Notes: generated from the sequence alone by a model not told the origin. A DNA stretch of 64,000 nt from Candidatus Kerfeldbacteria bacterium (GCA_047946875.1 CP181398.1:143154-207153); one strand, 5' to 3'; positions 1,244 through 46,476 are shown, counted from the stretch's first letter. Program-made: numbers and translations.

Positions 1244-1903
1244 ATGAAACAACAATTCCCCGAAACAATTAAAAACCCATCAACCAAAATTTGGATTATT
1301 TTTTTTGTAATTATAATAGCTCTGGTAGTTGGTGTTTATTTTTATTTTGTGCAAACTCAGGAAGAGTGGAATATAAGTATAATAAACATTAATACAACAA
1401 CGATAAAAAAGTGTAGTGATATAACTGATGAAAATGAGTGTTCCGCACGCAAGGATTGCCGACGACATGATTTGTGCCCATGTAATAATCTAAATCTAAA
1501 ATGTGGTGTAGCGCCTGAATTTCCGCCTGAAGTTACATGTGACTGTTTTATGGATGGTTTCGAATATTGCGAGGATTTGATGTGTGACGGGGTAAATGCT
1601 ACATGGATTTTTAATGGACCAGTTTCACGGTCTTGTGAGGGGGATAGCGACTGCAAGTTTGTTGATAACACGATAAATTATAGCGGGTGCTGTAGAAATA
1701 ACTCTTTTTGTCCTGATTATTCAGATCAGAAATATGTAGCAGTGAATAAGGTTACATTTAATGAGTTTAGGAGTCAATTGATGGTTGAGAATGATTGTGA
1801 TACAGCACTATGTCCAGTCGTTGATATATTACCGTGTCCTGAAGTTGAGCCGTTTTATGAAGTGAAATGTCTAAGTAATTTATGTGTAAAACAAAAAATA
1901 TGA
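1244..1903 (+). CDS. Membrane-anchored Cys-rich extracellular protein, paralog 2
   Basis: N-terminal TM. C-terminal domain CEGDSDCKFVD..SGCC...CPDY.DQKYVAVNK...NDCDTALCP...CPEVEPFYEVKCLSNLCVK is homologous to the domain of ORF 124..1236. Confidence 0.7.
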   Translation: MKQQFPETIKNPSTKIWIIFFVIIIALVVGVYFYFVQTQEEWNISIININTTTIKKCSDITDENECSARKDCRRHDLCPCNNLNLKCGVAPEFPPEVTCDCFMDGFEYCEDLMCDGVNATWIFNGPVSRSCEGDSDCKFVDNTINYSGCCRNNSFCPDYSDQKYVAVNKVTFNEFRSQLMVENDCDTALCPVVDILPCPEVEPFYEVKCLSNLCVKQKI

Positions 1904-4117: not shown

Positions 4118-4237
4118 ACTGATACTGATGATATGTAATCATGCTTAGCTGTTGAAAATAATTATATTTTGCAATACATATCAGGTTTGTGTGTAAAAGT
4201 ATTTAGGCAATATTAATTATTCTATAATATTATATAA

Positions 4238-4264
4238 TTAGCACTCTTGACTTGAGAGTGCTAA
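4238..4264 (+). promoter_or_regulatory. CIRCE operator (HrcA binding site), with a TATAAT at 4223-4228 just upstream
   Basis: TTAGCACTC-ttgacttga-GAGTGCTAA is a perfect match to the CIRCE consensus TTAGCACTC-N9-GAGTGCTAA. It lies 27 bp upstream of the hrcA start. Confidence 0.95.
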
Positions 4265-4290
4265 TTGGATTATAATACTTATACAACTAT

Positions 4291-4998
4291 ATGAATGAAA
4301 GAAAAAGTGCCATTTTTGGGGCTATTATCAAAGAACATGTAACTAAAGGCAATACTGTTGCCTCAAAAGTGCTTGTGGATAAGTATGACTTTCAGCTCTC
4401 TTCAGCAACTATGCGTAATGAGATGGTAGAGCTTGAAAAAGATGGTTATATATTTCAGCCTCATACATCAGCAGGACGTATCCCTACAGAAAAAGGTTGG
4501 AAGTATTATATAGAAAATTTTATTCAGAATAAGCAGATAAGTAAGAAACACAAAGAATTAATGGATGTAATATTCGATGAAGGGGGAATGAATTTTGACA
4601 TTACTGTGAAGAAAGTTTCCAAAGGCTTGGCAGAGATTTCTAAGGATGCAGTATTTGTGGGATTTTCACACGATGATTTTTATTACACCGGCTTATCACA
4701 TTTATTCAAAAATCCTGAGTTTCAAAAACTAGATTTAGTACAGCATGTTTCAGAAGTAGTGGATCATCTTGGTGAAGTTATTACTGATATGTTTGATGAA
4801 GTAAGTGAATCAGAAACAGAGATTGTGCTAATTGGAAAAGAAAATCCATTTGGTGCAGAATGCAGTACGATTGTAACAAGTTATTCGAATGGTAAAGACA
4901 ATAAAGGTGTATTTGGAATCTTGGGGCCGATGAGGATGAATTATGAAGATAACATGGCTTTGATAAAATATGCAAAAGAATTATTTAATAATGTATAA
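4291..4998 (+). CDS. hrcA: Heat-inducible transcription repressor HrcA (short form)
   Basis: N-terminal wHTH with VSxATMRNEMxxLEKDGYIFQPHTSAGRIPTEKG, the HrcA signature. Sits directly downstream of CIRCE and upstream of grpE. Confidence 0.85.
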   Translation: MNERKSAIFGAIIKEHVTKGNTVASKVLVDKYDFQLSSATMRNEMVELEKDGYIFQPHTSAGRIPTEKGWKYYIENFIQNKQISKKHKELMDVIFDEGGMNFDITVKKVSKGLAEISKDAVFVGFSHDDFYYTGLSHLFKNPEFQKLDLVQHVSEVVDHLGEVITDMFDEVSESETEIVLIGKENPFGAECSTIVTSYSNGKDNKGVFGILGPMRMNYEDNMALIKYAKELFNNV

Positions 4999-5015
4999 CA
5001 AATAATATAATAACT

Positions 5016-5516
5016 ATGTCAGACGAAAAAAAAGACTTAGAAAAAAAAGATGTTAAACTAAAACTAACTGAACTAGAAAAAACTAAAGAAAAAATGGAAG
5101 AATATTTGAATGGGTGGAAAAGGGCAAAAGCAGATTACAGTAATCAAAAAAAAGAATTTGAAAGAAAAGAACAAGAGATTATACAGTTTGCCAATGCTAC
5201 GCTCATATTAGAAATTATGCCTATCTATGACAATTTCAAACTAGCTTGGAAGCATATACCTGAAGAGCATAAAAATGAAGATGAATGGCTAAAAGGAATC
5301 GAACATATTAAGAAACAGTTTGCTGATATGTTAAAAAGATTAGGGCTAGAAGAAATCCCTACAGTAGGGGAGAAGTTTGATCCAGAGCTACATGAAGCAG
5401 TCGGTACAGAAAAAGTTGAAGGTAAGAAGAGTGGAGAAATAGTTGAAGAAATTAAATCAGGTTATAAACTTTATAACAAAGTGCTTGAACCAGCTAAAGT
5501 AAAAACCGCAGAGTAA
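5016..5516 (+). CDS. grpE: Nucleotide exchange factor GrpE
   Basis: Has a coiled-coil N-terminus and the ...RKEQEIIQFANATLILEIMPIYDNFKLAW...GYKLYNKVLEPAKV GrpE fold motifs. Located in the hrcA-grpE-dnaK context. Confidence 0.9.
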   Translation: MSDEKKDLEKKDVKLKLTELEKTKEKMEEYLNGWKRAKADYSNQKKEFERKEQEIIQFANATLILEIMPIYDNFKLAWKHIPEEHKNEDEWLKGIEHIKKQFADMLKRLGLEEIPTVGEKFDPELHEAVGTEKVEGKKSGEIVEEIKSGYKLYNKVLEPAKVKTAE

Positions 5517-5523
5517 ATACACA

Positions 5524-5598
5524 CTTGTCATCCTGAACTTGATTCAGGATCTCTAGAAAAGATTAGGGTGAGATTCCGGATCAAGCCCGGAATGACAG
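5524..5598. repeat. GC-rich nested-hairpin intergenic repeat, TTGTCAT-box family, copy A
   Basis: cTTGTCATcctgaacttgattcaggatc...attccggatcaagcccggaATGACAg. The outer stem TGTCAT/ATGACA encloses two hairpins, cctgaa/ttcagg and attccgg/ccggaat. Immediately 3' of grpE. Confidence 0.6.
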
Positions 5599-5633
5599 AA
5601 AATAATATATAATAATTTTAAAAGAATAATAAT

Positions 5634-6083
5634 ATGGCAATAATGAGATGGCGACCTTCAATGGATCCAATAGATTTAGAAAGATTTTTTGAAGAAATGC
5701 CAAGGATGCAAGCAAAAAATAATTCATATACACCAGCTGTAGATATCTACCAAGATAAGGATAATGTCGTTGTAGAGACACCATTGGCTGGGGTAGATCC
5801 TGAGAAAGTAAATGTATCAGTGGAAGATGATGTATTAAAAATAGAAGGTAAATCAGAACATAGATCAGAAGTAGATGAAGATAACTATTATAGAAAAGAA
5901 GTACGACATGGTAGCTTTTATAGGGCAATAGCTCTACCTACCAGTGTAATAGCTGATAAAGCAGAGGCTAACTTCGAAAATGGAATGCTTAAAGTAATAA
6001 TCCCAAAAGCTGGTGAAGTTAAACCAAAAACAATCAAAGTAAATATAATTAAAAAAGATAAATCTAAAAAAATTCAGGCATAG
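5634..6083 (+). CDS. Small heat shock protein, Hsp20/alpha-crystallin family
   Basis: Alpha-crystallin domain AVDIYQDKDNVVVETPLAGVDPEKVNVSVEDDVLKIEGK...GSFYRAIALP. Confidence 0.9.
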   Translation: MAIMRWRPSMDPIDLERFFEEMPRMQAKNNSYTPAVDIYQDKDNVVVETPLAGVDPEKVNVSVEDDVLKIEGKSEHRSEVDEDNYYRKEVRHGSFYRAIALPTSVIADKAEANFENGMLKVIIPKAGEVKPKTIKVNIIKKDKSKKIQA

Positions 6084-6556: not shown

Positions 6557-8533
6557 ATGAGTAAAATACTCGGAATTGACTTAGGTACTACTAACTCAGC
6601 TATGGCAATAATTGAGGGCGGAGAACCAAAAGTATTAGAAAATAAGGAGGGCAACAGAACTACACCGTCAGTGGTAGCTATTACCAAGACAGGAGAGCGT
6701 GTTGTTGGGCAGATTGCCAAAAGACAAGCAGTAACTAATCCAGAGAATACAATCTATTCTGTGAAAAGGTTGATTGGTCGTCATTGGAATGATGATGAAG
6801 TACAGCATGATGTAAAAACAATGCCTTACAAAATCGTTCAAGCAGGAGAAGGTCTTAAAGTGGCTATGAACGGTAAAGATCAAACTCCTCAGGAAGTTTC
6901 AGCAATGATTCTACAGAAGCTTAAGGCTGATGCAGAAGCTAAGTTGGGCGAGAAGATAGAAGAGGCAGTTATTACTGTGCCAGCTTATTTTGATGATGCA
7001 CAGCGCCAAGCTACCAAAGATGCTGGTGAGATTGCAGGTCTGAAAGTAAAACGTATTATCAATGAGCCAACCGCAGCTGCTCTAGCTTATGGTTTTGATA
7101 AGAAAAAAGATCAGCAAATTGCTGTTTATGATCTTGGTGGTGGTACTTTTGATATCTCTATCTTAGACGTAACCGCCGATACTGTTGAGGTTAAATCTAC
7201 CAATGGTGACACTCATCTTGGTGGTGATGATTTTGATAAGAAAATTATTGACTGGATGATAGATGAATTCAAGAAAGATCAAGGAATTGATTTATCCAAC
7301 GACAATATGGCTTTACAGAGGTTGAAAGAAGCAGCTGAGAAAGCCAAAGTAGAACTATCAACTGCTACAGACACAGAAATCAACTTACCATTCGTCACAA
7401 CTGACGATACTGGCCCTAAGCATATGGTTATGAAGATGACTCGTGCACAATTAGAAGAACTAGTTAGTGAACTTATCGAGCAAACTATGGAGCCAGTTAA
7501 GAAAGCATTGGAAGATGCTAAATTAAAAGCTTCAGACATCGAAGAAGTTATCATGGTCGGTGGTATGACTCGTATGCCAAAAGTATTGGAGACTGTAGAG
7601 AAATTCTTCGGCAAGAAACCTCACATCGGTGTTAATCCTGATGAGGTTGTAGCCTTGGGTGCAGCTGTACAAGCTGGTGTTATGCAAGGTGAAGTTAAAG
7701 ACGTCTTGTTATTAGACATTACTCCATTGACTCTAGGTATCGAGACATTAGGTAGTGTTTCTACTCCATTGATCGAGAAGAATACAACTATCCCTACTTC
7801 CAAATCTCAAATTTTCTCAACTGCTGCAGATAATCAAACATCCGTAGAAATCCACGTATTACAAGGTGAGAGATCTATGGCTGGTGATAACAAAACATTA
7901 GGTAGATTTATCTTAGCTGGTATTCCACCATCTCCTAGAGGTGTGCCACAAGTAGAGGTATCTTTCGATATCGATGCTAATGGTATCTTGAATGTGAAAG
8001 CCGTGGACAAAGCTTCTGGTAAAGAACAATCCATCACTATCACTGCTTCATCTGGTCTATCTAAAGATGAAGTAGAGAAGATGAAACAAGATGCCAAAGC
8101 TCATGAAGCAGAGGATGCTAAAAAGAAAGAAGGAGTTGAGACAAAAAACCAAGCAGAATCATTAGTCTTCACCGCAGAGAAGTCATTGAAAGATGCAGGT
8201 GATAAGGTTAAAGATGAAGTGAAAAAAGAAGTAAATGAAAAGATCGAAGCCCTTAAGAAGTTGAAAGATAGCGATGATTTATCAGCTATTAAGAAAGCTA
8301 CTGAGGAATTATCCGTAGCTATGCAACAGATTGGTGCTGCCATGAATGAGGCTCAGCAAAAGGCTGACGCTGCAAAGCCTAAGGAAGGTGATAAAAAAGA
8401 TCCTGAAACAAGTTCAGGAGGTAATGGTAAAGATAAAGGACCAGTAGATGCAGAGTTTGAAGATGTGAAGAAAGATGGAGAAAAGAAAGAGGATGATAAA
8501 AAGGAAGAAGAGAAAAAAGATGATAAAAAGTAA
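6557..8533 (+). CDS. dnaK: Chaperone DnaK (Hsp70)
   Basis: [17 protein letters not shown] and VGGMTRMP signatures. Lys/Glu-rich C-terminal tail. RBS AAAGGAA upstream. Confidence 0.97.
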
Positions 8534-8545
8534 TTAGTTTAAATA

Positions 8546-8577
8546 GCGCGGGGCATTTGCCCCGCGTGATTTGTATA
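8546..8577 (+). terminator. Intrinsic terminator after dnaK
   Basis: GCGCGGGGC-attt-GCCCCGCG hairpin followed by a T-rich tract. Confidence 0.7.
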
Positions 8578-8613
8578 TACGTTGAGTTTAAAAAAATATT
8601 ATGGAATTAATGT

Positions 8614-9516
8614 ATGGAAAAAAATGAAAATTTAATATCAAAAAATATTGTAGTTATTATTGTATTTGTATTTGGGATTTTTATGCTTGGCGCGCTGGTA
8701 TACGATGCCTTTACTTCAAAAACATTAAGCGCAAGAGAAAGTACACTTATTTCAATTTTTAGTTCTTTTTTAATTGCACAAGGTTTTTACATTTTTGGTA
8801 AAACATCATCACGTATAGAAGCAATGGAAGGTTTTAAAGGGGAAACACAGAAAGCTTATCGTCGTTCAGAAATTATTAAAAAGAGTTCTGAAACCATACA
8901 GGCAATGTTGAGTTCACGAATGGGTGTATATAAAGCAAAAAAAGAATTGAATAATTCTGATCGAGACGCAATTCTAGAGATTTTTAGAAGTGGAATATTA
9001 CAAATGGACAGCTTAATTGATCATTTAAATGCTTCAATGAAGGATTGGGCAGACATTATTCCTGAATTTGTGGACAAAAGAAAAGAAGTAAATAAAAAAA
9101 TTGCAGATATAAGAGATGAATTAAATAAACAAAGAATCACTTTTTTAGAGGAAGTTGATAAAGTTAAAAAAGCAACTGAAAAGAGTGATGGGGAAAAGAA
9201 AAATGAGATTGATATATTAAAAACAAAAATAGGTGCACTTGAATCTGAAAAGTATTCAGAAATTAAACAGATAGATCCTCTGGATTCATTAGTATCCTCA
9301 CCAAGCGGAATGGGAGTTGTCTATAGTAATGCAGATAATGTTAGAATATTAAATTCAAATGAAGGTATTTTACCGAGAAGTTTTGTAGATGATTCTTTAA
9401 TTTCATCAGAAAATATGTTTCAATCTCGTGTCCCAGATTTAACAAAAGTTGAACCAAATGTAATTACTGGCATTCAAGTAAAAAAAGTTAAAAGCAAAGA
9501 AGAAACAAAGAAATAA
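8614..9516 (+). CDS. Hypothetical membrane protein with a coiled-coil region
   Basis: 300-aa ORF with one N-terminal TM and a long Lys/Glu-rich helical region. Confidence 0.6.
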   Translation: MEKNENLISKNIVVIIVFVFGIFMLGALVYDAFTSKTLSARESTLISIFSSFLIAQGFYIFGKTSSRIEAMEGFKGETQKAYRRSEIIKKSSETIQAMLSSRMGVYKAKKELNNSDRDAILEIFRSGILQMDSLIDHLNASMKDWADIIPEFVDKRKEVNKKIADIRDELNKQRITFLEEVDKVKKATEKSDGEKKNEIDILKTKIGALESEKYSEIKQIDPLDSLVSSPSGMGVVYSNADNVRILNSNEGILPRSFVDDSLISSENMFQSRVPDLTKVEPNVITGIQVKKVKSKEETKK

Positions 9517-9575
9517 TAATGAATTATCAAAGAATTAACCAAACCCTAGGAGCAGGCCTCTGTGCCTGCGACGCC

Positions 9576-9612
9576 ATAAAAAAACTGAGCGCACCCAGGG
9601 ACGGATGCGCTC
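9576..9612 (-). terminator. Rho-independent terminator on the minus strand (repeat copy 1 of 2)
   Basis: Minus-strand RNA GAGCGCA-uccgucccuggg-UGCGCUC followed by U7. The 29-nt core gcgcacccagggacggatgcgctcggagg recurs identically at 11161-11189. Confidence 0.6.
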
Positions 9613-9631
9613 GGAGGTTAATTACATACTT

Positions 9632-9771
9632 TTGTCACTTCGAACCTGCCTGCTCGCCTCGCTAAAGCTCGGACGAAGCGGGCCGGTAGGCAGGCGAAGA
9701 GAGAAGTCCTTATAACGATATTAGCATTTACTAACCTGATAAAGATCTCTCCGCTTCGGTCGAGATGACAA
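9632..9771. repeat. Long GC-rich structured intergenic element (extended member of the TTGTCA-box family / candidate sRNA)
   Basis: TTGTCAc at 9632 and ATGACAA at 9765 bracket a long imperfect hairpin: cttcg/cgaag, cctgcct/aggcagg, cgcttcg/cgaggcg. GC content is far above that of the flanks. The 73-aa minus-strand ORF track entry here is probably not coding. Confidence 0.45.
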
Positions 9772-9839
9772 ACGTTAGTTAAATTAAAATCTATAAGAAG
9801 TGTGGCTAAATTAAATTTTAATAATAGGAGAACGATCAA

Positions 9840-10241
9840 ATGGCAAATAAAAAAATTAACCCAGTTTCCTTAAGGATACCAACAAAAGCCTATAGTCAAG
9901 GAGTTCTTGTTCCTTGCGGACAAAGTAATTTACTTTTTATTACTGGGCAGTTACCTCAAGATATTGATGGTAAAATTATCCACCAAGATGATGTAGGGGA
10001 GCAAGTTAGGCTTGTTTTTTCAAGGATTTCTGATATTTTGAAAGAAGCAGAGATGTCTTTCGATGATGTTGTGAAGCTCCAGATTTATGTGAGTGATATA
10101 GGTTCTGCAAAGACTGTATCCTCTATTAGAGATGAACTCTTTGGAGTTAGTAAACCCGCAAGCACACTTGTAGAAGTGTCAGGCTTTGTAAAAGAAGGTT
10201 GCAACGTTGAAATTGATGCCGTTGCAGCGAAGCTTGTTTAA
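9840..10241 (+). CDS. ridA: RidA/YjgF family reactive-intermediate deaminase
   Basis: GQLPQD...VRLVFSRISDILKEAEMSFDDVVKLQIYVSD...VEVSGFVKEGCNVEIDAVA matches the RidA/L-PSP fold. Confidence 0.85.
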   Translation: MANKKINPVSLRIPTKAYSQGVLVPCGQSNLLFITGQLPQDIDGKIIHQDDVGEQVRLVFSRISDILKEAEMSFDDVVKLQIYVSDIGSAKTVSSIRDELFGVSKPASTLVEVSGFVKEGCNVEIDAVAAKLV

Positions 10242-10274
10242 CTAACTTCTTTAGATTCGTTAGGAGGCTTACTC

Positions 10275-10342
10275 TTGTCATTGCGAGCAAAGCGAAGCAA
10301 TCTCATGAGATCACTTCGTCATTTTATTCCTCGTGATGACAA
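10275..10342. repeat. GC-rich nested-hairpin intergenic repeat, TTGTCAT-box family, copy B
   Basis: TTGTCATtgcgagcaaagcgaagcaatc...cgtgATGACAA immediately 3' of ridA. Same outer stem as copies A, C and D. Confidence 0.55.
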
Positions 10343-10359
10343 ATTAGAAAATAATATCT

Positions 10360-10815
10360 ATGAATTACCAAAGAATAATACAACAAATAGTTGAGCAGGC
10401 GAGAGAGTTGAAAGATATTAGCACAACAGAGAATAAAGCACGTGTGAACTATGCTTGTATTTTTTCGCAATCTAAGAAGGAATATAAGGAGTTAGAAACA
10501 GACGTGGCGCAATACGGTAAGCTAATAAAAGAAACAAAGATGGGGAATGTGTATTTAGTAGAGCCGATACAGACATGGTCTGGATTAGTAAAGATAGTAA
10601 AAATAAGAAAACCAGATCCTGAGCGACCTGAGCGGGGAGACGCTGATTTCACAGTAAGGGATTATAAGGTGTTTAAAAAAGAATATTTAGATAAGCCTGG
10701 GTTTAGTTTGATAGAACGTCCTGATATGGAAATGATAGAATTAGCTGATCCAAATTTTAATGTCTTGGCTTATTTCTCTAACCCAACACTTGGAGAGGTA
10801 TTGGGTATTAATTAA
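10360..10815 (+). CDS. Hypothetical protein
   Basis: 151-aa ORF with no recognisable motif. Confidence 0.55.
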   Translation: MNYQRIIQQIVEQARELKDISTTENKARVNYACIFSQSKKEYKELETDVAQYGKLIKETKMGNVYLVEPIQTWSGLVKIVKIRKPDPERPERGDADFTVRDYKVFKKEYLDKPGFSLIERPDMEMIELADPNFNVLAYFSNPTLGEVLGIN

Positions 10816-10852
10816 AAAAGGACCCAATAGTTGAATCCTTTACGTTAAATAT

Positions 10853-11071
10853 TTAGGCATAGTAGCACACAGTTGCCATCAGACTTATTCCGCAACAAAT
10901 TAGAGTGGCATTTCGATAGTACTTGCGAGTTCCTAGATCAATTGCCCAACGATGAAATTCATCGCAGATGCACAAGAAATAACAAATTGAGCTTACAAAA
11001 AGTACGGCAAGTCCTCCAAAAATGATAAGCGCCCATGCGGCTTCCCAAGCAGAATTGTATTCCACTATCAT
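10853..11071 (-). CDS. Small hypothetical membrane protein (72 aa, two predicted TM, Cys-rich)
   Basis: Sequence MIVEYNSAWEAAWALIIFGGLAVLFVSSICYFLCICDEF...LICCGISLMATVCYYA. Preceded on its own strand by a structured GC-rich leader plus terminator hairpin. Confidence 0.5.
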   Translation of the reverse strand: MIVEYNSAWEAAWALIIFGGLAVLFVSSICYFLCICDEFHRWAIDLGTRKYYRNATLICCGISLMATVCYYA

Positions 11072-11149
11072 AATATACCCCTTTATTAAATAGCAATTTT
11101 ATTATATTAAGTTTAGCTAGATAGGGTTGTTTTGTCAAAAAAAACCTGT

Positions 11150-11183
11150 AAAAAAAGTAGCGCACCCAGGGACGGATGCGCTC
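11150..11183 (-). terminator. Rho-independent terminator on the minus strand (repeat copy 2), in the 5' leader of the 10853..11071 gene
   Basis: Minus-strand GAGCGCA-uccgucccuggg-UGCGCU followed by U7, with the core identical to 9584-9612. Its position between a structured element and the downstream ORF suggests an attenuator. Confidence 0.55.
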
Positions 11184-11194
11184 GGAGGATTTCA

Positions 11195-11280
11195 TAACCA
11201 TAGAGAGCACACTTTCCGCCCATCTTCGCCTTTGACGAAACTAATGGCGGGCAGGTCTAGTGTGCGAACGAAATAGTATT
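11195..11280. repeat. GC-rich nested-hairpin structured element (outer stem GCACACT/AGTGTGC)
   Basis: gaGCACACTttccgcccatcttcgcctttgacgaaactaatggcgggcaggtctAGTGTGCg. Nested CCGCC/GGCGG and ttcg/cgaa stems. Contains the GGCGGGCAGG box. Confidence 0.5.
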
Positions 11281-11284
11281 TATA

Positions 11285-11359
11285 TTGACATGGATGTCTA
11301 TTCATGATATTTTGGTATATAAATAAAAACATAAATTGAACTTAAAAAAAGGATAAAAA
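11285..11359 (+). promoter_or_regulatory. Promoter/5'UTR module P1 (75-bp repeat copy 1)
   Basis: TTGACA, then a 17-bp spacer, then TG-n-TATTTT, then a conserved AT-rich leader ending in an RBS GGA. About 90% identical to 11609..11686. Confidence 0.6.
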
Positions 11360-11515
11360 ATGGCAGTAGATGATAAAAATACCGAATGTCCTCATTGTAA
11401 TGGACGTACAACCTGTACTTGCTCAAGTTGCGGAGCTTATGTCACTGGCAGGGGTGGAAAGGAATGGAAAAAGGGTATTTGCAAGGTTTGTGGTGGCTCT
11501 GGTAAAGCCAGATAA
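11360..11515 (+). CDS. Unannotated 51-aa Cys-rich miniprotein with DnaJ-type zinc-finger motifs
   Basis: Too short for the ORF track (under 60 aa). Sequence MAVDDKNTECPHCNGRTTCTCSSCGAYVTGRGGKEWKKGICKVCGGSGKAR, i.e. CxxCxG...CxxCxG...CxxCGGSG. Driven by promoter module P1 and followed by a terminator. Confidence 0.6.
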   Translation: MAVDDKNTECPHCNGRTTCTCSSCGAYVTGRGGKEWKKGICKVCGGSGKAR

Positions 11516-11551
11516 TCCTGGTAAGTAGTTTCAAAAGCTATGATAGTAACT

Positions 11552-11584
11552 CCGTTGATTAATTTTAACGGGGTTTCATTTTTT
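11552..11584 (+). terminator. Intrinsic terminator after the miniprotein gene
   Basis: CCGTT-gattaatttt-AACGG hairpin followed by gTTTCATTTTTT. Confidence 0.5.
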
Positions 11585-11608
11585 GTAAAACAAAAAATTA
11601 CAAAAGGA

Positions 11609-11686
11609 TTGACATAGACGTTTATCTATGATATTTTGGTATATAAATAAAAACATAAATTGTACGTAAAAAAAAGGAGAAAAACG
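11609..11686 (+). promoter_or_regulatory. Promoter/5'UTR module P2 (75-bp repeat copy 2)
   Basis: TTGACAtagacgtttatctatgatattttggtatataaataaaaacataaattgtacgtaaaaaaaaGGAGaaaaacgATG, a near-duplicate of P1. Confidence 0.6.
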
Positions 11687-12034
11687 ATGTCAGATATGTC
11701 TTGTATGGTACCACGTGAAAAGGTTGCATTAAGAATTACAACAGGTAATGATAATGATCAAACCGTTTATGTATTCGGTCCCCCAGACAAAAATGAATTT
11801 AGAAAGGTTCAACGAAATGACGAAAAACCTTTCACAGCTAAGATAATGGGACCAGTTGTAGATGAGATTTTGGTTGATGATGTGGTAGTGGGCATATACA
11901 CACAATTAGCTAATAAGCAGGTCCTAGCGCATAAAAAAATGCTTGAAGTGGGCACTCCAATGGGACTTTGGACTGAACCTGATGCCAAAGAAACTCGAAT
12001 TTCAAGACCTATTATCAAGATAGAGATTATTTAA
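11687..12034 (+). CDS. Hypothetical protein (116 aa)
   Basis: Start ATG at 11687, 7 nt after a GGAG RBS. The track ORF extends to 11660. Sequence MSDMSCMVPREKVALRITTGNDNDQTVYVFGPP... Confidence 0.6.
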   Translation: MSDMSCMVPREKVALRITTGNDNDQTVYVFGPPDKNEFRKVQRNDEKPFTAKIMGPVVDEILVDDVVVGIYTQLANKQVLAHKKMLEVGTPMGLWTEPDAKETRISRPIIKIEII

Positions 12035-12049
12035 ATCTTTTATCTAAAA

Positions 12050-12077
12050 CCTCCAATTTTTACTGGAGGTTTTTTTA
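12050..12077 (+). terminator. Intrinsic terminator
   Basis: CCTCCA-atttttac-TGGAGG hairpin followed by T7. Confidence 0.75.
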
Positions 12078-12102
12078 TATTTGAAAATAAGTATGTATAA
12101 AT
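12054..12102. repeat. Direct repeat DR-a (about 48 bp) flanking the metallopeptidase gene
   Basis: caatttttactggaggtttttttatatttgaaaataagtatgtataaa matches 14142..14190 (caaatttttactggaggtttttttatatgttataataagtatatatgaa). Confidence 0.6.
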
Positions 12103-12167
12103 TCTCTTGGTAATAAAAAAACACTTTAGAAAAACTAAAGTGTTTTTTATTGAAAAGTTTTTATAAT

Positions 12168-14015
12168 TTACTCCGCTATTTGAAGTAGGTCAGCGGTGGT
12201 AAATTTCTGCGATCCGCCGGTGTCTTTGTTAGTGATGGTGAGCGTGACATCTTCTTTTGTTCCGTCTGATGTTATCAGCTGCATGGTGTCAGTATCTAAG
12301 GAGTTATCACCGAGTGGGATTTTGACATGAATTTTATCTAAAGTAACTACCTTTGATGTGCCAAATGAAACGGTTGCCTCAGAGTCAATGTCAATATCGC
12401 CACCTACTAATGTTGAATCTTCTCTGGTATCTTTAAATAGAATTGTCGTGGTGGCAAACTCTGTCGTCGATGAGTATTCTTTACCGCTGATAGATATTGT
12501 GTATGTAGTATCAACTAATGATGTGTCAGTTGGTATTGTTCCTATTTGCTGTTTAATGCTTTCTATACTATAAGCTTCAGCTTTATTTTCTACTATAATA
12601 TCGATATATGAAGTTTGTTCACCGCGTGCACTGGAATACGGAGCAAGGCGATTTGTAATTTGTCGCTCATTCACAAGACCATAGCGGAAGTCTAGATTAT
12701 AGCCGCCACACATGACTGACGAATATGTCCCTTTGATATTATTTGATACATACGAACATCCATTAAAGTACCCAACATCTAACGCTTCTTTTACTTGGCC
12801 TTCAAGATCACCCCACCATAATTCCGCTACAACTACAGAACTTGCGCAGTTTGGAAAACCTGGACTATTGGATCCACTAGAGTCAATTCTTTCATCTCTG
12901 AGTAGGAAAGCTTGGTGGCCAAATTCATGATGGAAAACATGGCGAATACCGCGCACGGCCCCTTGTTCCATCTCAAGAAAATCAGTAGTCGCTATATATG
13001 AATCTCGATTGTAATGCGCATAACCGACAACCCCGTCGGGGAAGGTAGTGTTACATAGGAAAACAGGATAAACGATGCCATTACTGATACCACTCTTTTC
13101 AATCGCCCAATTGTAATGGTCAGCTCCAAATTCGCAACTTGTTAGGAGTTGCTCATTGAGGTACCAAAAATTATATTTATCTAAATTATCTTTAAGTACT
13201 TCCATTTCAGCGAATGGCTTTACCTCAGTTAGCCAGTTATATTCCGGATGGCCCGCTCCATAATATGTTAAGTTAAATGGTTCAACATTATACTGATCAT
13301 TTAAGTCGATTAACACTTTACTTTTGATTATTACCTCATTTATCGATGGCTGATCTGATCCGATAAATACGACATTTACACGATTTGCATTCTTATCATT
13401 ATGATTACTATACAACTCTTTTAATATAGGTATGCATGTACAACCATTACACTGCTCATCAAGTCCGCATCCACCATTATAATCGCATTCTTCCCCTAGT
13501 TCTGGTTGAATTTGCCCATCTCCACATGAATATTTACACGCACCATCATCACAGTACCAATAATTTCCATACCGCACCGAACAATCCGCTTCTGTAGAGC
13601 TAAATTCAGGCCCTAAAAGGGCTTCGGTTTCTTCATTAGCCTCTGTATCAATACTAGCACCACGGATGACAGGGGTATTGATTTCTGGGCTATTTGGGCA
13701 ATAATAATCAACTACATGATCGCTAGTTTCGCAGTTATCAGTGTATTTATTAATCTTTCCATAGCCATTATCAATTGTCACCCATCCATGCCTTTTAAAG
13801 GCATCTTTTCCGTCTGAATCACGGCATATTGGTGTACCACTTAAAATAGGATCAGTTTCTGAGTCCGGTCCAATTATTAATCCATACACAAGTCCACCTC
13901 CGGCGATAACGGCCGCGAGTATCATCGTAGTGAGCGCAATCATGACTGGTGTCTGGATTTTTGTTGAAGTGATTTGTTGGATTTGTTTGTTCATAGGTTT
14001 TTTCTTAGGAGGCAT
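12168..14015 (-). CDS. Membrane-anchored secreted zinc metallopeptidase (HExxH), Cys-rich
   Basis: N-terminal TM (IALTTMILAAVIAGGGLVYGLII). HEFGH motif (VFHHEFGHQAFLLRDE) with downstream Glu candidates, i.e. gluzincin-like. Many Cys pairs (CGDGQ...CDYNGGCG...CNGCTC). Confidence 0.75.
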   Translation of the reverse strand: MPPKKKPMNKQIQQITSTKIQTPVMIALTTMILAAVIAGGGLVYGLIIGPDSETDPILSGTPICRDSDGKDAFKRHGWVTIDNGYGKINKYTDNCETSDHVVDYYCPNSPEINTPVIRGASIDTEANEETEALLGPEFSSTEADCSVRYGNYWYCDDGACKYSCGDGQIQPELGEECDYNGGCGLDEQCNGCTCIPILKELYSNHNDKNANRVNVVFIGSDQPSINEVIIKSKVLIDLNDQYNVEPFNLTYYGAGHPEYNWLTEVKPFAEMEVLKDNLDKYNFWYLNEQLLTSCEFGADHYNWAIEKSGISNGIVYPVFLCNTTFPDGVVGYAHYNRDSYIATTDFLEMEQGAVRGIRHVFHHEFGHQAFLLRDERIDSSGSNSPGFPNCASSVVVAELWWGDLEGQVKEALDVGYFNGCSYVSNNIKGTYSSVMCGGYNLDFRYGLVNERQITNRLAPYSSARGEQTSYIDIIVENKAEAYSIESIKQQIGTIPTDTSLVDTTYTISISGKEYSSTTEFATTTILFKDTREDSTLVGGDIDIDSEATVSFGTSKVVTLDKIHVKIPLGDNSLDTDTMQLITSDGTKEDVTLTITNKDTGGSQKFTTADLLQIAE

Positions 14016-14141
14016 ATTGCTATAATTTAATATAATATTTTATCACTTCATTATTATACGCTAATATTACGTTAAAATCAAAAAACCCAAATTTAAAGGC
14101 TTATCAAAAAGATATAGATTATTTAGAGAATTATTAAATCT

Positions 14142-14190
14142 CAAATTTTTACTGGAGGTTTTTTTATATGTTATAATAAGTATATATGAA
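14142..14190. repeat. Direct repeat DR-b (partner of 12054..12102)
   Basis: See DR-a. Copy b lacks the left arm of the terminator hairpin and includes the ATG of the downstream HD gene. Confidence 0.6.
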
Positions 14191-14734
14191 CTACGAAAGA
14201 ATAAACCAAGCTATTGAATACGCGTCTGAAATGCATCATGATTTACGTTATAAATATAACGATAATAAGTTTCAGGTTGCTCACATTTTTTTTGTTGGTG
14301 CTATTTTGATGAAACATGGTTTTGACGATGATGTTATTATCGCTGGTTTCTTGCATGATGCGATAGAGGATACAGATGTTACCAAAGAAGATATTGAGAA
14401 AAGGTTTGGTAAAAGAGTAGCAGACTTTGTAGAGGCAGAGACAGTGGATCAGACTATTGAATGGAAGAAGAGACAGTATCTTATGCAGGATAATGTACGT
14501 AATGCTTCTCTTGAAGTTAAAGCTATCAAAACCGCTGATCAATTACATCAATTAAACTTGTTTACTGACGATAGCCATCTTGCCAGTCAGAACAACTATA
14601 TCAACCAAAAAGGTGCTAAGAAAGCTTATTGGAAATATGAGCAGTTATTAGAGGCTATTGGGACTGGTTGGTCACATCCAATCCTTGATGATGCATATGT
14701 ATTACTCAAGAAGATGAAGAAAAAATATCTTTAA
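14186..14734 (+). CDS. HD-domain (p)ppGpp hydrolase-like protein (SpoT/Mesh1-type small alarmone hydrolase)
   Basis: H..H-x22-GFLHDAIEDTDVTKEDIEKRFG ... IKTADQLHQLN, the RelA/SpoT HD hydrolase signature. No synthetase domain. 182 aa. Confidence 0.7.
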   Translation: MNYERINQAIEYASEMHHDLRYKYNDNKFQVAHIFFVGAILMKHGFDDDVIIAGFLHDAIEDTDVTKEDIEKRFGKRVADFVEAETVDQTIEWKKRQYLMQDNVRNASLEVKAIKTADQLHQLNLFTDDSHLASQNNYINQKGAKKAYWKYEQLLEAIGTGWSHPILDDAYVLLKKMKKKYL

Positions 14735-15348
14735 TAATTTGTACTTTCTATAACCTGCCAAAGGTGGATAGGTGTTAAGTAACAAAGAGTTCTAAGAGTC
14801 TTCAAGACACTTTTTTTAATACCATAATTAGTATGGGATGGTTTAATAAATATCCTTGGACCTACATAATACTAAAAACTATATTTTGATAAATATTTTA
14901 GATAATAAATGATGTAAAAAAAATAACTGACTTCGTTTTTATACGAAGTCAGCTTATTACCCCACAATGGTTATATCGACAACAACCGTCTGTAATTGTC
15001 GATATCAAAAAAAATAATTCAAAGAACGTTTTTCCTTATACCAGGACAGGTAAAGGTTATCCGATTAGTTGGATGGGGTGGGTACGAATAATAATATTAT
15101 AACAAATAATTCATTAGGTCAAGGTTGGATTGTTTTCAAAAAAAAATGAGGCGCTCGTGAACATATTGCATATGTTCAGTCATGGCAGCCTCATTAAGTA
15201 AATGTTACTCTTTCAAGTTTTAGTTATAGAAAGTACAACTCTTTTCTGATCGTCTAATCATCCTTTTATTTTTATGGTGTTTATATTATATCAATCATTT
15301 GGGTAGCTAGTCAATGAATTAATATCTAAAATATGCTAAAATATATGC

Positions 15349-16029
15349 ATGGAAAATGAACCAAAAAATATAGATATTAAAATGTTAGCGATAATATTTA
15401 CATTAGTATCAGTACTGATTATCAGCGGTATTTCTTTTTATTTGATATCAGAAAGCAAAGGCACGAAAATAACAATACCTGTTGTAAATTCAACGACAAA
15501 TACAAATACTAATACTAACATTATAAATGTGAATCAAGATTTAAATACTAATTATTTTCCGTATATTGCGCCAAGTACTGCAATGTATGATCTTTATCTT
15601 TGTCCTGGAGTGACTATTTCGAACCCTTCAGCTACAGATTGCTTTTATACTACAAACTTGATAAGTGATGATAGTACGATAAATATTCATGGAAGCTATA
15701 TAAATAACGTAGGAGTAGATTGGCAAAGTTTATTTGTAGTAGTGAAAGATTGTCCCACTTGCGATGTTCCTAGATATTTAGATTTTGATACTGCTACACG
15801 GAGTATGACTGCATGTTCGATATCTGGGCAAATTGATCCAAATAATTTTGGTGTTTTTAATCAATTTATTTATCCTTCCACAGATGATTGGTCAGAAGAA
15901 ATATTAAGCGCTAAGGATCATGTTAGAATAGAAATTGATAAATATTTTAAAGAGGGGAATGATATTTATATGATACAAGCATCACCAGCCGGCTGTGATC
16001 TGCTAGTAACAAATTTCCAGGTATTATAA
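15349..16029 (+). CDS. Membrane-anchored hypothetical extracellular protein
   Basis: N-terminal TM followed by a Thr/Asn-rich linker (TNTNTNTN) and a Cys-containing domain. Confidence 0.6.
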   Translation: MENEPKNIDIKMLAIIFTLVSVLIISGISFYLISESKGTKITIPVVNSTTNTNTNTNIINVNQDLNTNYFPYIAPSTAMYDLYLCPGVTISNPSATDCFYTTNLISDDSTINIHGSYINNVGVDWQSLFVVVKDCPTCDVPRYLDFDTATRSMTACSISGQIDPNNFGVFNQFIYPSTDDWSEEILSAKDHVRIEIDKYFKEGNDIYMIQASPAGCDLLVTNFQVL

Positions 16030-16039
16030 ATTTAAGGTA

Positions 16040-16066
16040 ATATAAAAACCCGCCAGATGGCGGGTC
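16040..16066 (-). terminator. Terminator for cspA (minus strand); the hairpin is also usable on the plus strand
   Basis: ACCCGCCA-ga-TGGCGGGT hairpin followed by a U-run on the minus strand. Confidence 0.7.
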
Positions 16067-16090
16067 TTTACGCTATAAATTTAAAAAAAT

Positions 16091-16288
16091 TTACGCTTTG
16101 CTGACTTTTGTAGCTGCAGGACCTTTTGGAGTATCTGAGATCTCGAAAGTAACAGCGTCACCTTCTTGAAGTTCATTATACTCGACTCCTTCCAACTCAT
16201 TTGAGTGGAAAAATAAGTCTTTGTCTTGGTCTTCAGCTGTAATAAAGCCAAAGCCTTTGTCAGTCAATTTTTTTATTGTTCCTTGCAT
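16091..16288 (-). CDS. cspA: Cold shock protein (CspA family)
   Basis: MQGTIKKLTDKGFGFITAEDQDKDLFFHSNEL..., with RNP1 (KGFGFI) and RNP2 motifs. Long 5'UTR upstream, as is typical of csp genes. Confidence 0.93.
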   Translation of the reverse strand: MQGTIKKLTDKGFGFITAEDQDKDLFFHSNELEGVEYNELQEGDAVTFEISDTPKGPAATKVSKA

Positions 16289-16573
16289 GTTTGTGTAGAA
16301 ATAAAAATTGAATTAAATAGTTATAGTAGCTTTTGAAATTCGACTTATATTTCTATACTAACTATACTCTAAACGCACTTTTCAATAGATCTAAAATCAA
16401 ACTATCGATTAGATTGTTCACCATTATACTAGCAAATAAAGGAATATTTGTCAATGGTAGTGATTAGTCCAATAAAAAAAGACCTAATTATTACTAGGTC
16501 TTAGGTATTAGATAGTATCAATAAATAGCGAAATATGCTAAAATACTGACATAATTAATTAAAAGTTAACAAT

Positions 16574-16885
16574 ATGAATGGACAACCAGCCGGCCAACAG
16601 GGTCAACAAATTAATATAAAAATAGATGATGCTACTCTAAAAGGAGTGCATGCTAATGCAATGGGAATTTCTCATGCTAAAGAAGAGTTTGTATTAGATT
16701 TCATGAATATCTATCCTTGGCAAAAAGTAGGTGTTGTGACCGCAAGAGTTATCACGGGACCAGGTCATATGAAAAGAATTTATAAAGCGTTGGAAGAAAA
16801 TATAAAAAAATATGAGGAAAAGTTTGGCAAGATAGAAGAAGCACAGTCTCCACAAGATGGGGAGATAGGTTTTAAAACTGCATAA
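16574..16885 (+). CDS. Small hypothetical protein (DUF3467-like)
   Basis: 103-aa ORF. The family assignment is by recollection only. Confidence 0.5.
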   Translation: MNGQPAGQQGQQINIKIDDATLKGVHANAMGISHAKEEFVLDFMNIYPWQKVGVVTARVITGPGHMKRIYKALEENIKKYEEKFGKIEEAQSPQDGEIGFKTA

Positions 16886-16937
16886 AAAAAGCCCGCACAT
16901 TAAATCGTGAGGGCTATTAAACTTTTTGGTGGTTTGT

Positions 16938-17330
16938 TTACTCGGGTACGATTTCGAAAAACTTTTTCAAATAATTCATTGAATGAGTAAAGAAGTTGGC
17001 AACATTACATTCGTAGATAATAAAGTCACCTTCTTTGTCTGCGATGCTAACGTAGTAAGTTGACCCTTTTCGGAATACCGTTTCATCACCTTGTTCAATG
17101 TTCTCTTTGCATTTGACAAGGATAACTTTAATGAAGAAGTTTTTGGATTCATCTTCTGAGAATGATACGATACCGCCACCACCCTTGTAGATATAAACAA
17201 AAGTGTCACTATTCTCAGTATCCAACTGTCGGATAAAGTAAATTTTTCCAGAGACGAATTCATAACCATCTTTGACCACCGTTTTGGTGCATTTCAGTTT
17301 TAAAGAGCTTTGGATTTTCTGCACATCCAT
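16938..17330 (-). CDS. Hypothetical protein
   Basis: 130-aa ORF on the minus strand, convergent with the 16574 gene. A GGGG loop is present. Confidence 0.55.
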   Translation of the reverse strand: MDVQKIQSSLKLKCTKTVVKDGYEFVSGKIYFIRQLDTENSDTFVYIYKGGGGIVSFSEDESKNFFIKVILVKCKENIEQGDETVFRKGSTYYVSIADKEGDFIIYECNVANFFTHSMNYLKKFFEIVPE

Positions 17331-17463
17331 CTTTCACCTCACTATTGTTATATTTTTTAATATTAACCGTATTAAACTTATCAATCGAAAAAACGATTGT
17401 CAATGATAATAAAAGAATTATAATTGCTTAATTAATATGGTAATTTAGCAGAATTATTGTATA

Positions 17464-18564
17464 ATGTCAAGTACTAGTAACCAACTTAATTATATGAGAG
17501 TAGAGAATAAAGAAGAAGAAAAAAAGATAGATAAATTTATACCCCCACAACCAATTGGTAAAGTTGCTACTTTGATTGGTCTAGTGGTAGCTAGTACAGC
17601 TCTTTTTTGGTTAGCATGGCATAACGCTATTACATCTGGTTTAAGTTTTGCCTTTAGTTGGGAAAATATATTATTGGTTCTTTCTACATTATTGGCAATG
17701 TGTTTAATGTTTACGATATTGGCAATGGCTGAAGTATTAGTAACGAAGAGAATACCTTTATTATTAATGGCAATTTTTTCTTCTGCTACTATGTTTCTTT
17801 TTTTCAAACCGTCTTTTTGGAGTATGGTAGGATTTTTATTAATGCTATTAGCATTCTTGGCATGGAGAAGAGAGATTAGACAAGATGAAAAAACTAGGGT
17901 AAAATTTGTACCACAAAAAATAATCGATAGTGGATTAAAGATGGCGGTCAGTTTGATATTATTAGCAGCTTGTTTCAATTTTTTTAGCTTCATGACAACA
18001 AGACCTAATGCAGAAATTGAAACTATGAATAGTTTGGTAAGTAATAGCACGGAGACTGTAGAAAGTGGCTTATTATTATATTATGGTGATAGGTATGACC
18101 CAGATATGGAGCTAGATACATTTATCAATAATATTAGTTCTTCAGTTGGTGATGCGATAATAGATGATAAGGTTAAGGTTGATACAGGCAATGAAGAGTT
18201 GGACAATGCTTTAGGTGATGCAATTACAGATAGTCTTGGAGTTGTACAACAGGAAGTAGTCGAAGAACTTAGGAATAGTTTTTTAGCAACGTTTAATATA
18301 GAAGCAACAGGTGATGAGAGTATGAATAGTATTATTGAAAAAATTGTACATGCAAATATTACAGAATTTGTTGATCCATATCTTGAGTTTGTACCGGCAT
18401 TATTAGCAGTCGGTTTGTTCTTTCTTCTTAATATATTTAATTTTATTTATAGAGAGTTAATTAAATGGTTTAGTTATCTATTGTTTCATATCTTTATTTG
18501 GATTAAGTTTATCCATATAAAGAAGATACAAATAGAAGCAGAAAAAATAGCATTATCTGAATAG
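17464..18564 (+). CDS. Hypothetical polytopic membrane protein
   Basis: 366 aa with several predicted TM helices flanking an acidic central domain. Confidence 0.6.
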
Positions 18565-18572
18565 TATACATT

Positions 18573-19703
18573 ATGGCAAATAAAGATTTATATGAAATTC
18601 TTGGAGTGGCTAAAGAAGCTAGTCAAGATGAAATAAAAAAAGCTTATAGAAAACTTGCTCATCAACATCATCCAGATAAATCTGGAGGTGATGAAGCTAA
18701 ATTTAAAGAGATTAATTCAGCTTATCAAGTGCTTAGTAATGAGCAGAAGCGCCAACAATATGATCAGTTTGGTCAGAATTTTAATCAAGCTGGTGGTGGG
18801 CAAGGAGGCCAAGGTGGTTTTGGTGGTGGGATGAATTGGGATGATTTCGCTCGTGCGTCTGGTGGTCAGCAGGGACCGTTTGGTCAAGGTGGTCAGGGAG
18901 CTGAGTATGATATGGGAGATATATTCGGAGATATTTTTGGTTTTGGTAAACGTGGTGGAGCAAGCTCTGGTGCCTCAGCACAAGGTGGTGATATACAGGC
19001 TGAAATGCAAATTGAATTCAAAGAAGCTGCTTTCGGAGCAGAAAAGGTAATAGATTTATATAAGCATGCCACTTGTTCACATTGTAAGGGGAATGGAGCA
19101 GAGCCAGGTTCAAAAATTGATACTTGTAAAAATTGCAATGGGCAGGGTAAGGTAGAGAGAGTGCAGCAAACTGTTTTAGGTGCATTTCGTACGGCAACTG
19201 TGTGTCCTGAATGTCGTGGTGAAGGTAAAAAATATGACAAGAAATGTAAAGAGTGTAGCGGTGACGGAAGAGTAAAAGAATCTGAAAAAATCAAAGTAAA
19301 AATTCCAGCTGGGATAGCAGAAGGTGAGACGATACGATTATCTGGAAAAGGGGAAGTAGGTCTAAAAGGAGCACCAGCGGGTGATCTTTATGTTACGATG
19401 AGAGTAGTTAATGATCCAAACTTTAATAGAGAGGGTGATGACATTTTGTCAGAAGTTAATATCAGTATTTCCCAAGCTACTTTAGGAGATAAAATAAATA
19501 TAATGACTTTGGATGGCGAAGTGACTTTAAAAGTTCCATCTGGTACTCAATCAGGTAAAGTGTTTAGTCTTAAAGGAAAAGGGACTCATCATCTACGTAT
19601 ACGTGGACGTGGCGATCATTTAGTAACAGTGAATATTCAAATACCTACAAAATTAAGTAGAGACCAAAAGAAGTTATTTGAACAATTATCCAAGTTAGAT
19701 TAA
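18573..19703 (+). CDS. dnaJ: Chaperone DnaJ
   Basis: J-domain with HPD ([12 protein letters not shown]), a G/F-rich region, four CxxCxGxG zinc-finger repeats and the C-terminal substrate-binding domains. Confidence 0.95.
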
Positions 19704-46475: not shown

Positions 46476-46476
46476 T

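Follow-up and report, generated by a model that had tools for sequence, protein, structure and literature searches.

Two adjacent small genes behind copies of one predicted promoter and leader in a Candidatus Kerfeldbacteria genome

Introduction

Why two small genes of unrelated sequence stand side by side behind nearly the same promoter and leader is the question raised by positions 11285-11686 of a 64-kb stretch of DNA (the window; GCA_047946875.1, CP181398.1:143154-207153). The window comes from the 1.31-Mb genome of a Candidatus Kerfeldbacteria bacterium, an uncultured member of the Candidate Phyla Radiation (CPR)/Patescibacteria. The first gene encodes a cysteine-rich mini-protein of 51 amino acids (aa) and the second a lineage-restricted orphan protein. 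A preliminary description had taken them for a duplicated, possibly co-regulated small-protein locus. Our reading, to which we assign a probability of about 0.6, is that two adjacent single-gene units share a promoter and leader that were duplicated when a gene was gained.

The duplicated module and the two gene units

The two near-identical promoter and leader modules of the preliminary description were confirmed as a direct repeat with copies of 77 nt each (11284-11360 and 11608-11684), which are adjacent and lie 324 nt apart. The copies were 86% identical without gaps and 88.3% identical with one 1-nt gap, and a core of 34-35 nt matched perfectly. The 34-nt core, TGATATTTTGGTATATAAATAAAAACATAAATTG, occurred exactly twice in the window and in none of 100 shuffles. 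Both copies have the promoter-like layout that had been described, with a TTGACA -35 hexamer, a 17-nt spacer and an extended -10-like TG-n-TATTTT (11285-11313 and 11609-11637). Direct reading of the sequence also placed a ribosome-binding site ahead of each start codon, AGGA 6 nt before the ATG at 11360 and AGGAG 7 nt before the ATG at 11687. The parts of the two units are as follows.

11284 to 11360, plus strand: Module 1, the copy of the predicted promoter and 5' leader; -35 TTGACA at 11285-11290, TG at 11305-11306, -10 TATTTT at 11308-11313, A-rich leader, Shine-Dalgarno sequence AGGA at 11350-11353
11360 to 11515, plus strand: gene of the 51-aa putative zinc-finger mini-protein (NCBI ACNFW9_00780), with the family pattern CPHCxGxTxCxCxxCG...GICKVCxGxG
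11548 to 11585, plus strand: predicted intrinsic terminator of the mini-protein gene, an 11-pair hairpin and then TCATTTTTTG; hairpin and T-run at 11548-11575 in the scan
11608 to 11686, plus strand: Module 2, the resident predicted promoter and 5' leader of the 115-aa gene; -35 at 11609-11614, -10 at 11632-11637, Shine-Dalgarno sequence AGGAG at 11675-11679
11687 to 12034, plus strand: gene of the 115-aa orphan protein (NCBI ACNFW9_00785), lineage-restricted, with one other protein cluster
12046 to 12080, plus strand: predicted intrinsic terminator of the 115-aa gene, hairpin and T-run at 12046-12073 in the scan

Both open reading frames (ORFs) lie on the 1.31-Mb contig. The 51-aa ORF was found with the sequence given in the preliminary description but is not unannotated, since NCBI carries it as a "hypothetical protein", and the second product, given there as 116 aa, has 115. 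That both ORFs are followed by terminators was borne out by the hairpins with T-runs listed above; in the scan, terminator-like sites numbered 10 against 3.0 expected. The two coding regions showed no similarity (best local alignment 15 nt), which rules out the 51-aa region as a decayed copy of the 115-aa gene. The 115-aa protein gave no significant match in Pfam, PHROGs, PADLOC or NCBIfam, and among 5.8 billion proteins it had a single other cluster (P0003, 76% identity).

Both module promoters scored 10/12, as did six sites in total across the 4.9-kb scan, and among these six both have a perfect -35 hexamer plus TG. The interval from -10 to start codon is 46-49 nt. The leaders are A-rich and about 40 nt long, and their predicted folding energies were -0.4 kcal/mol in module 1 (z = +0.34) and -2.8 kcal/mol in module 2, with both z-scores above 0. 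Because the leaders are predicted to be unstructured, a riboswitch or thermosensor is unlikely. The Rfam scan, at gathering and E-value thresholds, placed no known RNA family over the modules or over two GC-rich elements nearby; its only match was a sub-threshold lysM-TM7 (21.5 bits against 61.5 required). A candidate minus-strand promoter of one of these elements (element B) overlaps module 1 at 11300-11273.

Comparison with a relative and proposed origin

The homologue P0003 is encoded on a 4.7-kb contig (L001), the only relative found. There, the order is an upstream gene, 55 bp, a single module (361-438), the homologue of the 115-aa gene and its terminator, which is kept. Window positions 10674-10815 and 11597-12078 were aligned to L001 by blastn, and the alignment delimits the following block.

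10816 to 11596, unstranded: 781-bp block, replaced by 55 bp in L001, holding a minus-strand 72-aa ORF, a GC-rich minus-strand RNA-like element, module 1, the mini-protein gene and its terminator

Module 2 is the positional orthologue of the module in L001, because the two are collinear in this alignment. Module 1, the mini-protein gene and its terminator are lineage-specific DNA, along with the 72-aa ORF and the GC-rich element. L001 is about 22% diverged from the window and its downstream synteny is different.

The ancestral state would have been that of L001, with an upstream gene, one module and the 115-aa gene. A promoterless mini-protein ORF with its terminator would then have come to follow a copy of the resident promoter and leader, joined to it precisely at the start codon. 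The outcome would be a target-insert-target structure with 11361-11607 as the insert, a structure proposed because the module ends at the mini-protein ATG and the ORF has no promoter of its own. The new gene would be expressed from the borrowed promoter. Each unit would consist of an extended -10 sigma-70-type promoter, an unstructured leader, one ORF and an intrinsic terminator, the first yielding a 51-aa cytoplasmic mini-protein and the second the 115-aa orphan. As candidate mechanisms, small circles sharing the target may have integrated by a single crossover, or long staggered breaks may have been filled in. Neither recombinase genes nor inverted repeats nor tRNA targets were found for this or the other duplications of the window described below.

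The duplication is probably an ordinary evolutionary event, namely promoter reuse through insertion-associated duplication. Reuse of promoters ahead of unrelated genes has been documented (Nijveen, Matus-Garcia and van Passel 2012, PMC3575422), and the present case resembles the putative mobile promoters described there in that two unrelated coding sequences of one genome are preceded by DNA that is 88% identical over 77 nt and no known mobile element is involved. The identity of 88.3% over 77 nt exceeds the level of at least 80% over at least 50 nt upstream of non-paralogous genes used in that study, whereas the module, at -76 to -1, reaches only about 27 nt into the interval of -150 to -50 from the start codon that was considered there. 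Unlike the putative mobile promoters, the copies in the window are not dispersed but adjacent, flanking the apparently inserted gene, and their likely origin can be read from a relative. The locus would offer a clean example, in a reduced CPR genome, of a small gene that is predicted to be expressed as soon as it is gained, from the copied promoter and leader of a neighbour.

The upstream gene itself also differs between the two genomes. The gene at L001 10-294 and the 151-aa gene of the window (10360-10815) share only the C-terminal 46 residues (89% identity), with N-terminal parts of unrelated sequence. Such a pattern points to recombination with a breakpoint within the upstream gene, which probably gave rise to mosaic genes.

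The mini-protein family

A word-index protein search with the 51-aa sequence returned only the sequence itself. When 1.84 billion cluster representatives were searched exhaustively with phmmer, 30 further proteins reached E <= 1e-3, with E-values from 6e-9 (best) to 9e-4. One of the 30, P0017, is a Cys-free repeat protein and looks spurious; the other members are mostly 47-100 aa long. Seven cysteines and one histidine (C10, H12, C13, C19, C21, C24, C41 and C44) are invariant across the family alignment, P11, G15, T17, G25, G39, G46 and G48 are nearly so, and the loop separating residues 25 and 39 is of variable length. The protein from the window has all of these residues, and the family motif can be written CPHCxGxTxCxCxxCG-x(n)-GICKVCxGxG. 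This CPHC-type family is uncurated and was defined in the present analysis; searches of the literature found no description of it. Some members have tandem double domains, and others are anchored to the membrane at the N- or C-terminus, where flanking basic residues suggest that the domain faces the cytoplasm.

A degenerate DNA pattern of the first motif block was found in 14 species genomes, at loci with a GC content of 0.31-0.65. These belong to Acidobacteriota, Bacteroidota, Planctomycetota (Scalindua, Brocadia, Kuenenia, Pirellulales), Nitrospiraceae (Nitrospirota), two Patescibacteria, three Alphaproteobacteria and Ca. Lithacetigena, and the family is scattered over at least six phyla.

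The preliminary description had proposed conservation as a check on the 51-aa ORF, and conservation was found family-wide. Nonsynonymous change (pN) was lower than synonymous change (pS) in every listed pair, these being pairs with unsaturated synonymous sites. The ratio of the corresponding substitution rates (dN/dS) ranged over the family from 0.10 to 0.78, the value of 0.10 coming from one pair that is close at the protein level (L016 and L023). Other assemblies of the window locus are 100% identical at strain level and so give no within-species dN/dS. The ORF has a GC content of 0.44, and its GC content at third codon positions (GC3) of 0.288 is host-like (0.246 +/- 0.074 in 52-codon samples of window genes). 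From the conserved residues and the substitution pattern, we conclude that the 51-aa ORF is truly protein-coding and belongs to a conserved family.

The mini-protein gene sits between dnaK (6557-8533) and dnaJ (18573-19703), a proximity that the preliminary description had considered notable. We examined 20 other family-locus records (L004-L023, including two pairs of near-duplicate records), and tblastn detected no DnaK, DnaJ, GrpE, HrcA or Hsp20 gene within about 4 kb in any of them. The proximity to dnaK and dnaJ therefore appears incidental. The neighbours of other members are unrelated to each other, one member being convergent with lon and others lying beside a ParE toxin-antitoxin pair, aspS or an AbiEii-like gene. 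Genes such as the last suggest defence functions. Phage genes were found neither at the window locus nor at the other family loci examined.

Predicted fold and possible function

With the family alignment, AlphaFold2 modelled the mini-protein with a predicted local distance difference test (pLDDT) score of 83, while the single sequence gave an uninformative model (pLDDT 49). The best Foldseek matches in the PDB were 7ZHS and 6JZB (DnaJA2 and S. pneumoniae DnaJ), with probabilities of 0.97 and 0.69, template modelling (TM) scores of 0.61 and 0.50 and weak E-values of 0.15-0.55. In the viral library (BFVD) small phage proteins came first, and several lower-ranked matches were labelled DnaJ cysteine-rich. 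Of known folds, that of the DnaJ cysteine-rich zinc domain comes nearest to the predicted one, though the protein falls outside both PF00684 and Anti-TRAP. The likeness to DnaJ that the preliminary description had seen in the CxxCxG spacing was thus supported at the level of the predicted fold, but the family did not match the Pfam DnaJ_CXXCXGXG model. Two results speak against the assignment. The Foldseek E-values are weak (0.15 in the PDB and 0.0055 in the viral library), as is to be expected with about 45 residues, and hhalign aligned 10 columns to the DnaJ zinc domain of the window itself, covering the first CxxCxG only. A profile search against PDB sequences gave matches at E = 0.5-0.8 only.

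No above-threshold family was found for the mini-protein in Pfam, NCBIfam, PHROGs or PADLOC. Scattered sub-threshold matches were to DnaJ_CXXCXGXG, Anti-TRAP, BSD2_CRD, zinc ribbons and Q-like antiterminators. For PF00684, the window protein had no match at E <= 0.1 and one of 20 members matched at E = 0.011. That domain, a V-shaped two-zinc beta-hairpin, has four CxxCxGxG repeats with eight cysteines, where the family has CPHCxG, CxCxxCG and CKVCxGxG. The mini-protein shares with the central cysteine-rich domain of DnaJ/Hsp40 (PF00684; PDB 1EXK, 7ZHS, 6JZB) CxxCxG(xG) motifs at either end of what is predicted to be a beta-hairpin, together with eight putative metal ligands that would suffice for two zinc ions, and JGI names one family member "DnaJ-class molecular chaperone". 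Unlike DnaJ, however, it is a stand-alone protein (47-100 aa across the family, 51 aa here) that lacks the J-domain, the G/F region and the C-terminal domains, and it has two canonical CxxCxG motifs plus a CxCxxCG block with one histidine ligand (CPHC). Embedding in a J-domain co-chaperone and a link to DnaK were rejected on this architecture and on the chaperone-free loci reported above.

Plant BSD2-type proteins are stand-alone DnaJ-type zinc modules, and Anti-TRAP, which is expressed under a tRNA-sensing leader, has four cysteines and one zinc, whereas the present family has eight ligands. Membership in Anti-TRAP (PF15777 / NF058604 RtpA) was rejected as well: the Pfam model matched two of 20 members (best E = 0.0033), the NCBIfam model three of 20 (best E = 0.045) and neither the window protein. 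A search with the family profile recovered no Anti-TRAP chain from the PDB at E <= 1. The likeness lies in the size class and in being a stand-alone DnaJ-type zinc-ribbon mini-protein, and Anti-TRAP acts through protein-protein binding. Anti-TRAP (RtpA) of Bacillus is a 53-aa DnaJ-like zinc protein that inhibits TRAP (PMC2896485, PMC4027176). For the modules of the window, no T-box or other structured leader is predicted.

Small phage zinc fingers that are DnaJ-cysteine-rich-like or Q-antiterminator-like are similar in size and predicted fold, the best BFVD match being a 56-aa uncharacterised Caudovirales protein (E = 0.0055). Sub-threshold PHROG matches were to phrog_127 (five of 20 members, best E = 0.006) and phrog_6060 (three of 20, best E = 0.00059), neither amounting to significant membership.

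On the model, the eight ligands most likely bind two zinc ions in a DnaJ-like hairpin, where C10/C13/C41/C44 may form one site and H12/C19/C21/C24 the other. By analogy with stand-alone DnaJ-type zinc modules of the Anti-TRAP and BSD2 type, a small protein-binding or holdase-like role seems most likely, though we hold this with low confidence. Within the zinc mini-proteins, a class already known, the family represents a variant that is new and uncurated. With its wide scatter and its seven-Cys/one-His ligand set it adds to the few stand-alone DnaJ-type zinc modules (Anti-TRAP, BSD2). Small genes of this kind are easily overlooked or left "hypothetical", and a defined motif permits their annotation.

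Other flanking duplications in the window

At least five further cases were found in the window in which a single gene lies between direct duplicates of neighbouring gene ends, terminators or promoters (48-113 nt, 76-96% identical).

9511-9557 and 10349-10400: duplicate pair of the start of the 151-aa gene (first ~14 codons and ~8 nt upstream of the ATG), leaving a dead fragment upstream of the apparently inserted RidA gene
11986-12101 and 14079-14190, plus strand: duplicate pair of the 3' end and terminator of the 115-aa gene, with a decayed second copy and a dead fragment at 14079-14125
12168 to 14015, minus strand: 615-aa orphan gene, apparently inserted between the 3'-end duplicates of the 115-aa gene
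45256-45331 and 46476-46551: duplicate pair of the first 26 codons of truB (96% identity), with a stop codon in 45256-45331, upstream of the apparently inserted HATPase/DUF4325 gene
40783-40830 and 43620-43667: duplicate pair of the greA terminator, around the UPF0182 gene
55852-55902 and 56335-56385: duplicate pair of a terminator-promoter spacer, around a reverse double-zinc-ribbon gene

The genes between the duplicates (RidA, the 615-aa orphan, HATPase/DUF4325, UPF0182 and the double zinc ribbon) are mutually unrelated, and none of them is a recombinase. Three of the duplications, at the 151-aa gene, the 115-aa gene and truB, leave dead gene fragments. Because several of the duplicated pieces are such fragments, the duplicating process is taken to be mechanical, not regulatory. 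The density of flanking duplications in the window did not clearly exceed the density seen across about 120 kb of unrelated loci, and no genome-specific claim is therefore made.

A mini-protein homologue of Candidatus Scalindua sp. (JAIQZR010000147.1, ~690-5870; L012) lies behind a promoter/leader module of about 180 nt (TTATTGTTGACA...). This module has at least six copies in 8 kb, each ahead of a different gene, and so forms a heterogeneous cassette array with one 5' module, as if one target had been hit repeatedly. It is a speculative and rather doubtful extension that the promoter duplication in the window is one case of a recurrent, recombinase-less gain of single-gene cassettes which copies 50-110 nt of the target on both sides. 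If it were true, promoter modules would be reusable landing pads that give incoming promoterless genes a ready-made promoter, and the cassette system would be integron-like in its outcome, with neither integrase nor attC. Long flanking duplications may inform how orphan genes accumulate, here in the hrcA-grpE-dnaK...dnaJ operon, and are put forward as a lead only.

Alternative explanations

Several observations weigh against the proposed gain of the mini-protein gene behind a copied promoter. Promoter-like sites as a class were not enriched in the region scan (20 observed against 17.7 expected), so that the promoter call rests on the quality and position of the two module sites and on sigma-70-type promoter use by the organism. 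Such use is plausible, since the hrcA promoter (TTGACT-18-TATAAT) overlaps a perfect CIRCE (controlling inverted repeat of chaperone expression) operator and many strong sigma-70-like matches occur immediately ahead of long ORFs. L001 also lacks the 467 bp that precede module 1, which the same single event leaves unaccounted for. In the 5' flank the module of L001 is like module 2 and in the 3' flank like module 1, a pattern that no simple model predicts. The choice of insertion here over loss in the relative draws on one relative, on parsimony and on analogy with the other duplications. Lastly, all 10 differences between the copies fall outside the 35-nt perfect core (P = 0.017 for random placement), and a core free of differences could reflect selection on a shared regulatory site.

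This last point, together with the same architecture in both units, is what favours regulatory design, in which the 35-nt core, running from the -10 into the early transcribed region, would be an operator or RNA element of a two-gene regulon. On inspection, however, no clear dyad symmetry was seen in the core, the leader lacks predicted RNA structure, and neither a CIRCE-like nor another known operator was found in the modules, the sole CIRCE of the window being that at the hrcA promoter. The module of the relative differs at about 9 of 34 core positions, a divergence close to that of its coding sequence (77.7% identity), and the identity of the core may reflect gene conversion or recent origin. 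The non-functional gene fragments among the other duplications likewise argue for a copying process that is not driven by regulation. We regard such a regulon as improbable. Co-regulation as suggested by the preliminary description may occur, since the promoter cores are identical, but the relative and the other flanking duplications favour a mechanical by-product of insertion; the two genes were probably not paired by design for shared regulation.

The two-module arrangement could instead be ancestral, the relative having lost the mini-protein gene and the upstream block by deletion. Direct repeats favour deletion, and the comparison is with a single relative of the divergence and differing synteny given above. 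Recombination between the modules would, however, remove 11361-11607 alone and not the extra 467 bp upstream, and the expected hybrid would join the 5' part of module 1 to the 3' part of module 2, the opposite of what the relative shows. The patchy, cross-phylum distribution of the family without conserved neighbours also fits sporadic gain. Such a loss in the relative is in our estimation unlikely.

A much smaller chance is given to the 51-aa ORF being a chance ORF or the precursor of a ribosomally synthesised and post-translationally modified peptide (RiPP), such as the Zn-tetracysteine cysimiditides. The product is very short and Cys-rich, Zn-tetracysteine RiPP precursors are known from a literature that cites DnaJ and Anti-TRAP, and the nearest strain-level copies are identical and thus uninformative on selection within the species. 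A chance ORF is hard to reconcile with ligands that are invariant throughout the family and with purifying selection. Against a RiPP, no peptide-modifying enzyme was found among the scanned window neighbours or the Pfam annotations of four other family loci (the sole methyltransferase seen, near P0043, is a DNA N6/N4 methyltransferase), and members with tandem double domains or membrane anchors fit a folded domain and not a leader-core peptide.

That the module belongs to a small non-autonomous mobile element with an outward promoter (like miniature inverted-repeat transposable elements or Correia elements) is very improbable: although mobile promoter-bearing repeats exist (PMC3575422) and other small GC-rich repeats occur in the region, neither the module nor the 324-bp unit is bordered by terminal inverted repeats, the 64-kb window holds only the two copies even with 3 mismatches or a blastn word size of 7, a module 23-mer had no match in a genome collection that does not contain this genome, a degenerate module pattern had none in the metagenome collection, and module 2 is positionally orthologous to the module of the relative.

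The surrounding chaperone region

A perfect CIRCE operator, TTAGCACTC-N9-GAGTGCTAA, lies at 4238-4264 and overlaps the TTGACT-18-TATAAT promoter 15 nt upstream of hrcA (site 4238-4276). The genes dnaK and dnaJ are usually adjacent in an hrcA-grpE-dnaK-dnaJ operon. In the window they are about 10 kb apart (8534-18572), and the interval is mostly occupied by orphan genes and small repeats, with transcription on both strands. From this layout, the hrcA-grpE-dnaK...dnaJ operon has apparently served as a sink for gene insertions. The 72-aa, 151-aa, 615-aa and 300-aa proteins had no above-threshold family in Pfam, NCBIfam, PHROGs or PADLOC.

The 72-aa hydrophobic ORF (10853-11071, minus strand) has two predicted membrane spans, is not called in the public annotation and gave no family match. 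Its candidate signals are a TTGACA-17-TAAACT promoter at 11138-11110, a GGGG Shine-Dalgarno sequence and a terminator at 10841-10817, and its GC3 of 0.37 is above that of typical window genes.

Two GC-rich islands on the minus strand, 9558-9760 (A) and 11150-11270 (B), have 50-58% GC against 33.5% GC for the window. They share an identical 30-nt hairpin that has the form of a minus-strand intrinsic terminator (GAGCGCATCCGTCCCTGGGTGCGCTC plus T-run), with CCUCC before it. The predicted folding of element A is strong (-97 kcal/mol, z = -5.3) and that of element B weak (z = -2.0). Element A had no blastn match in phages, the GC-rich hairpin had none in the metagenome collection, and neither element belongs to an Rfam family. 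The elements are possible novel small RNAs. The interval that separates the RidA and 151-aa genes holds a further GC-rich palindromic element at 10275-10340 (TGTCATTGCGAGCAAAGCGAAGCAATCTCATGAGATCACTTCG...GTGATGACA), which is similar to short palindromic intergenic repeats.

Strong sigma-70-like promoters that end 3-12 nt before a start codon were seen at 28269-28304, 47285-47320, 45362-45402 and 56321-56289. This suggests that leaderless or very-short-leader mRNAs may be common in this genome, unlike the 46-49-nt interval of the two modules. A triple TTGACAAT repeat is present at 45362-45402.

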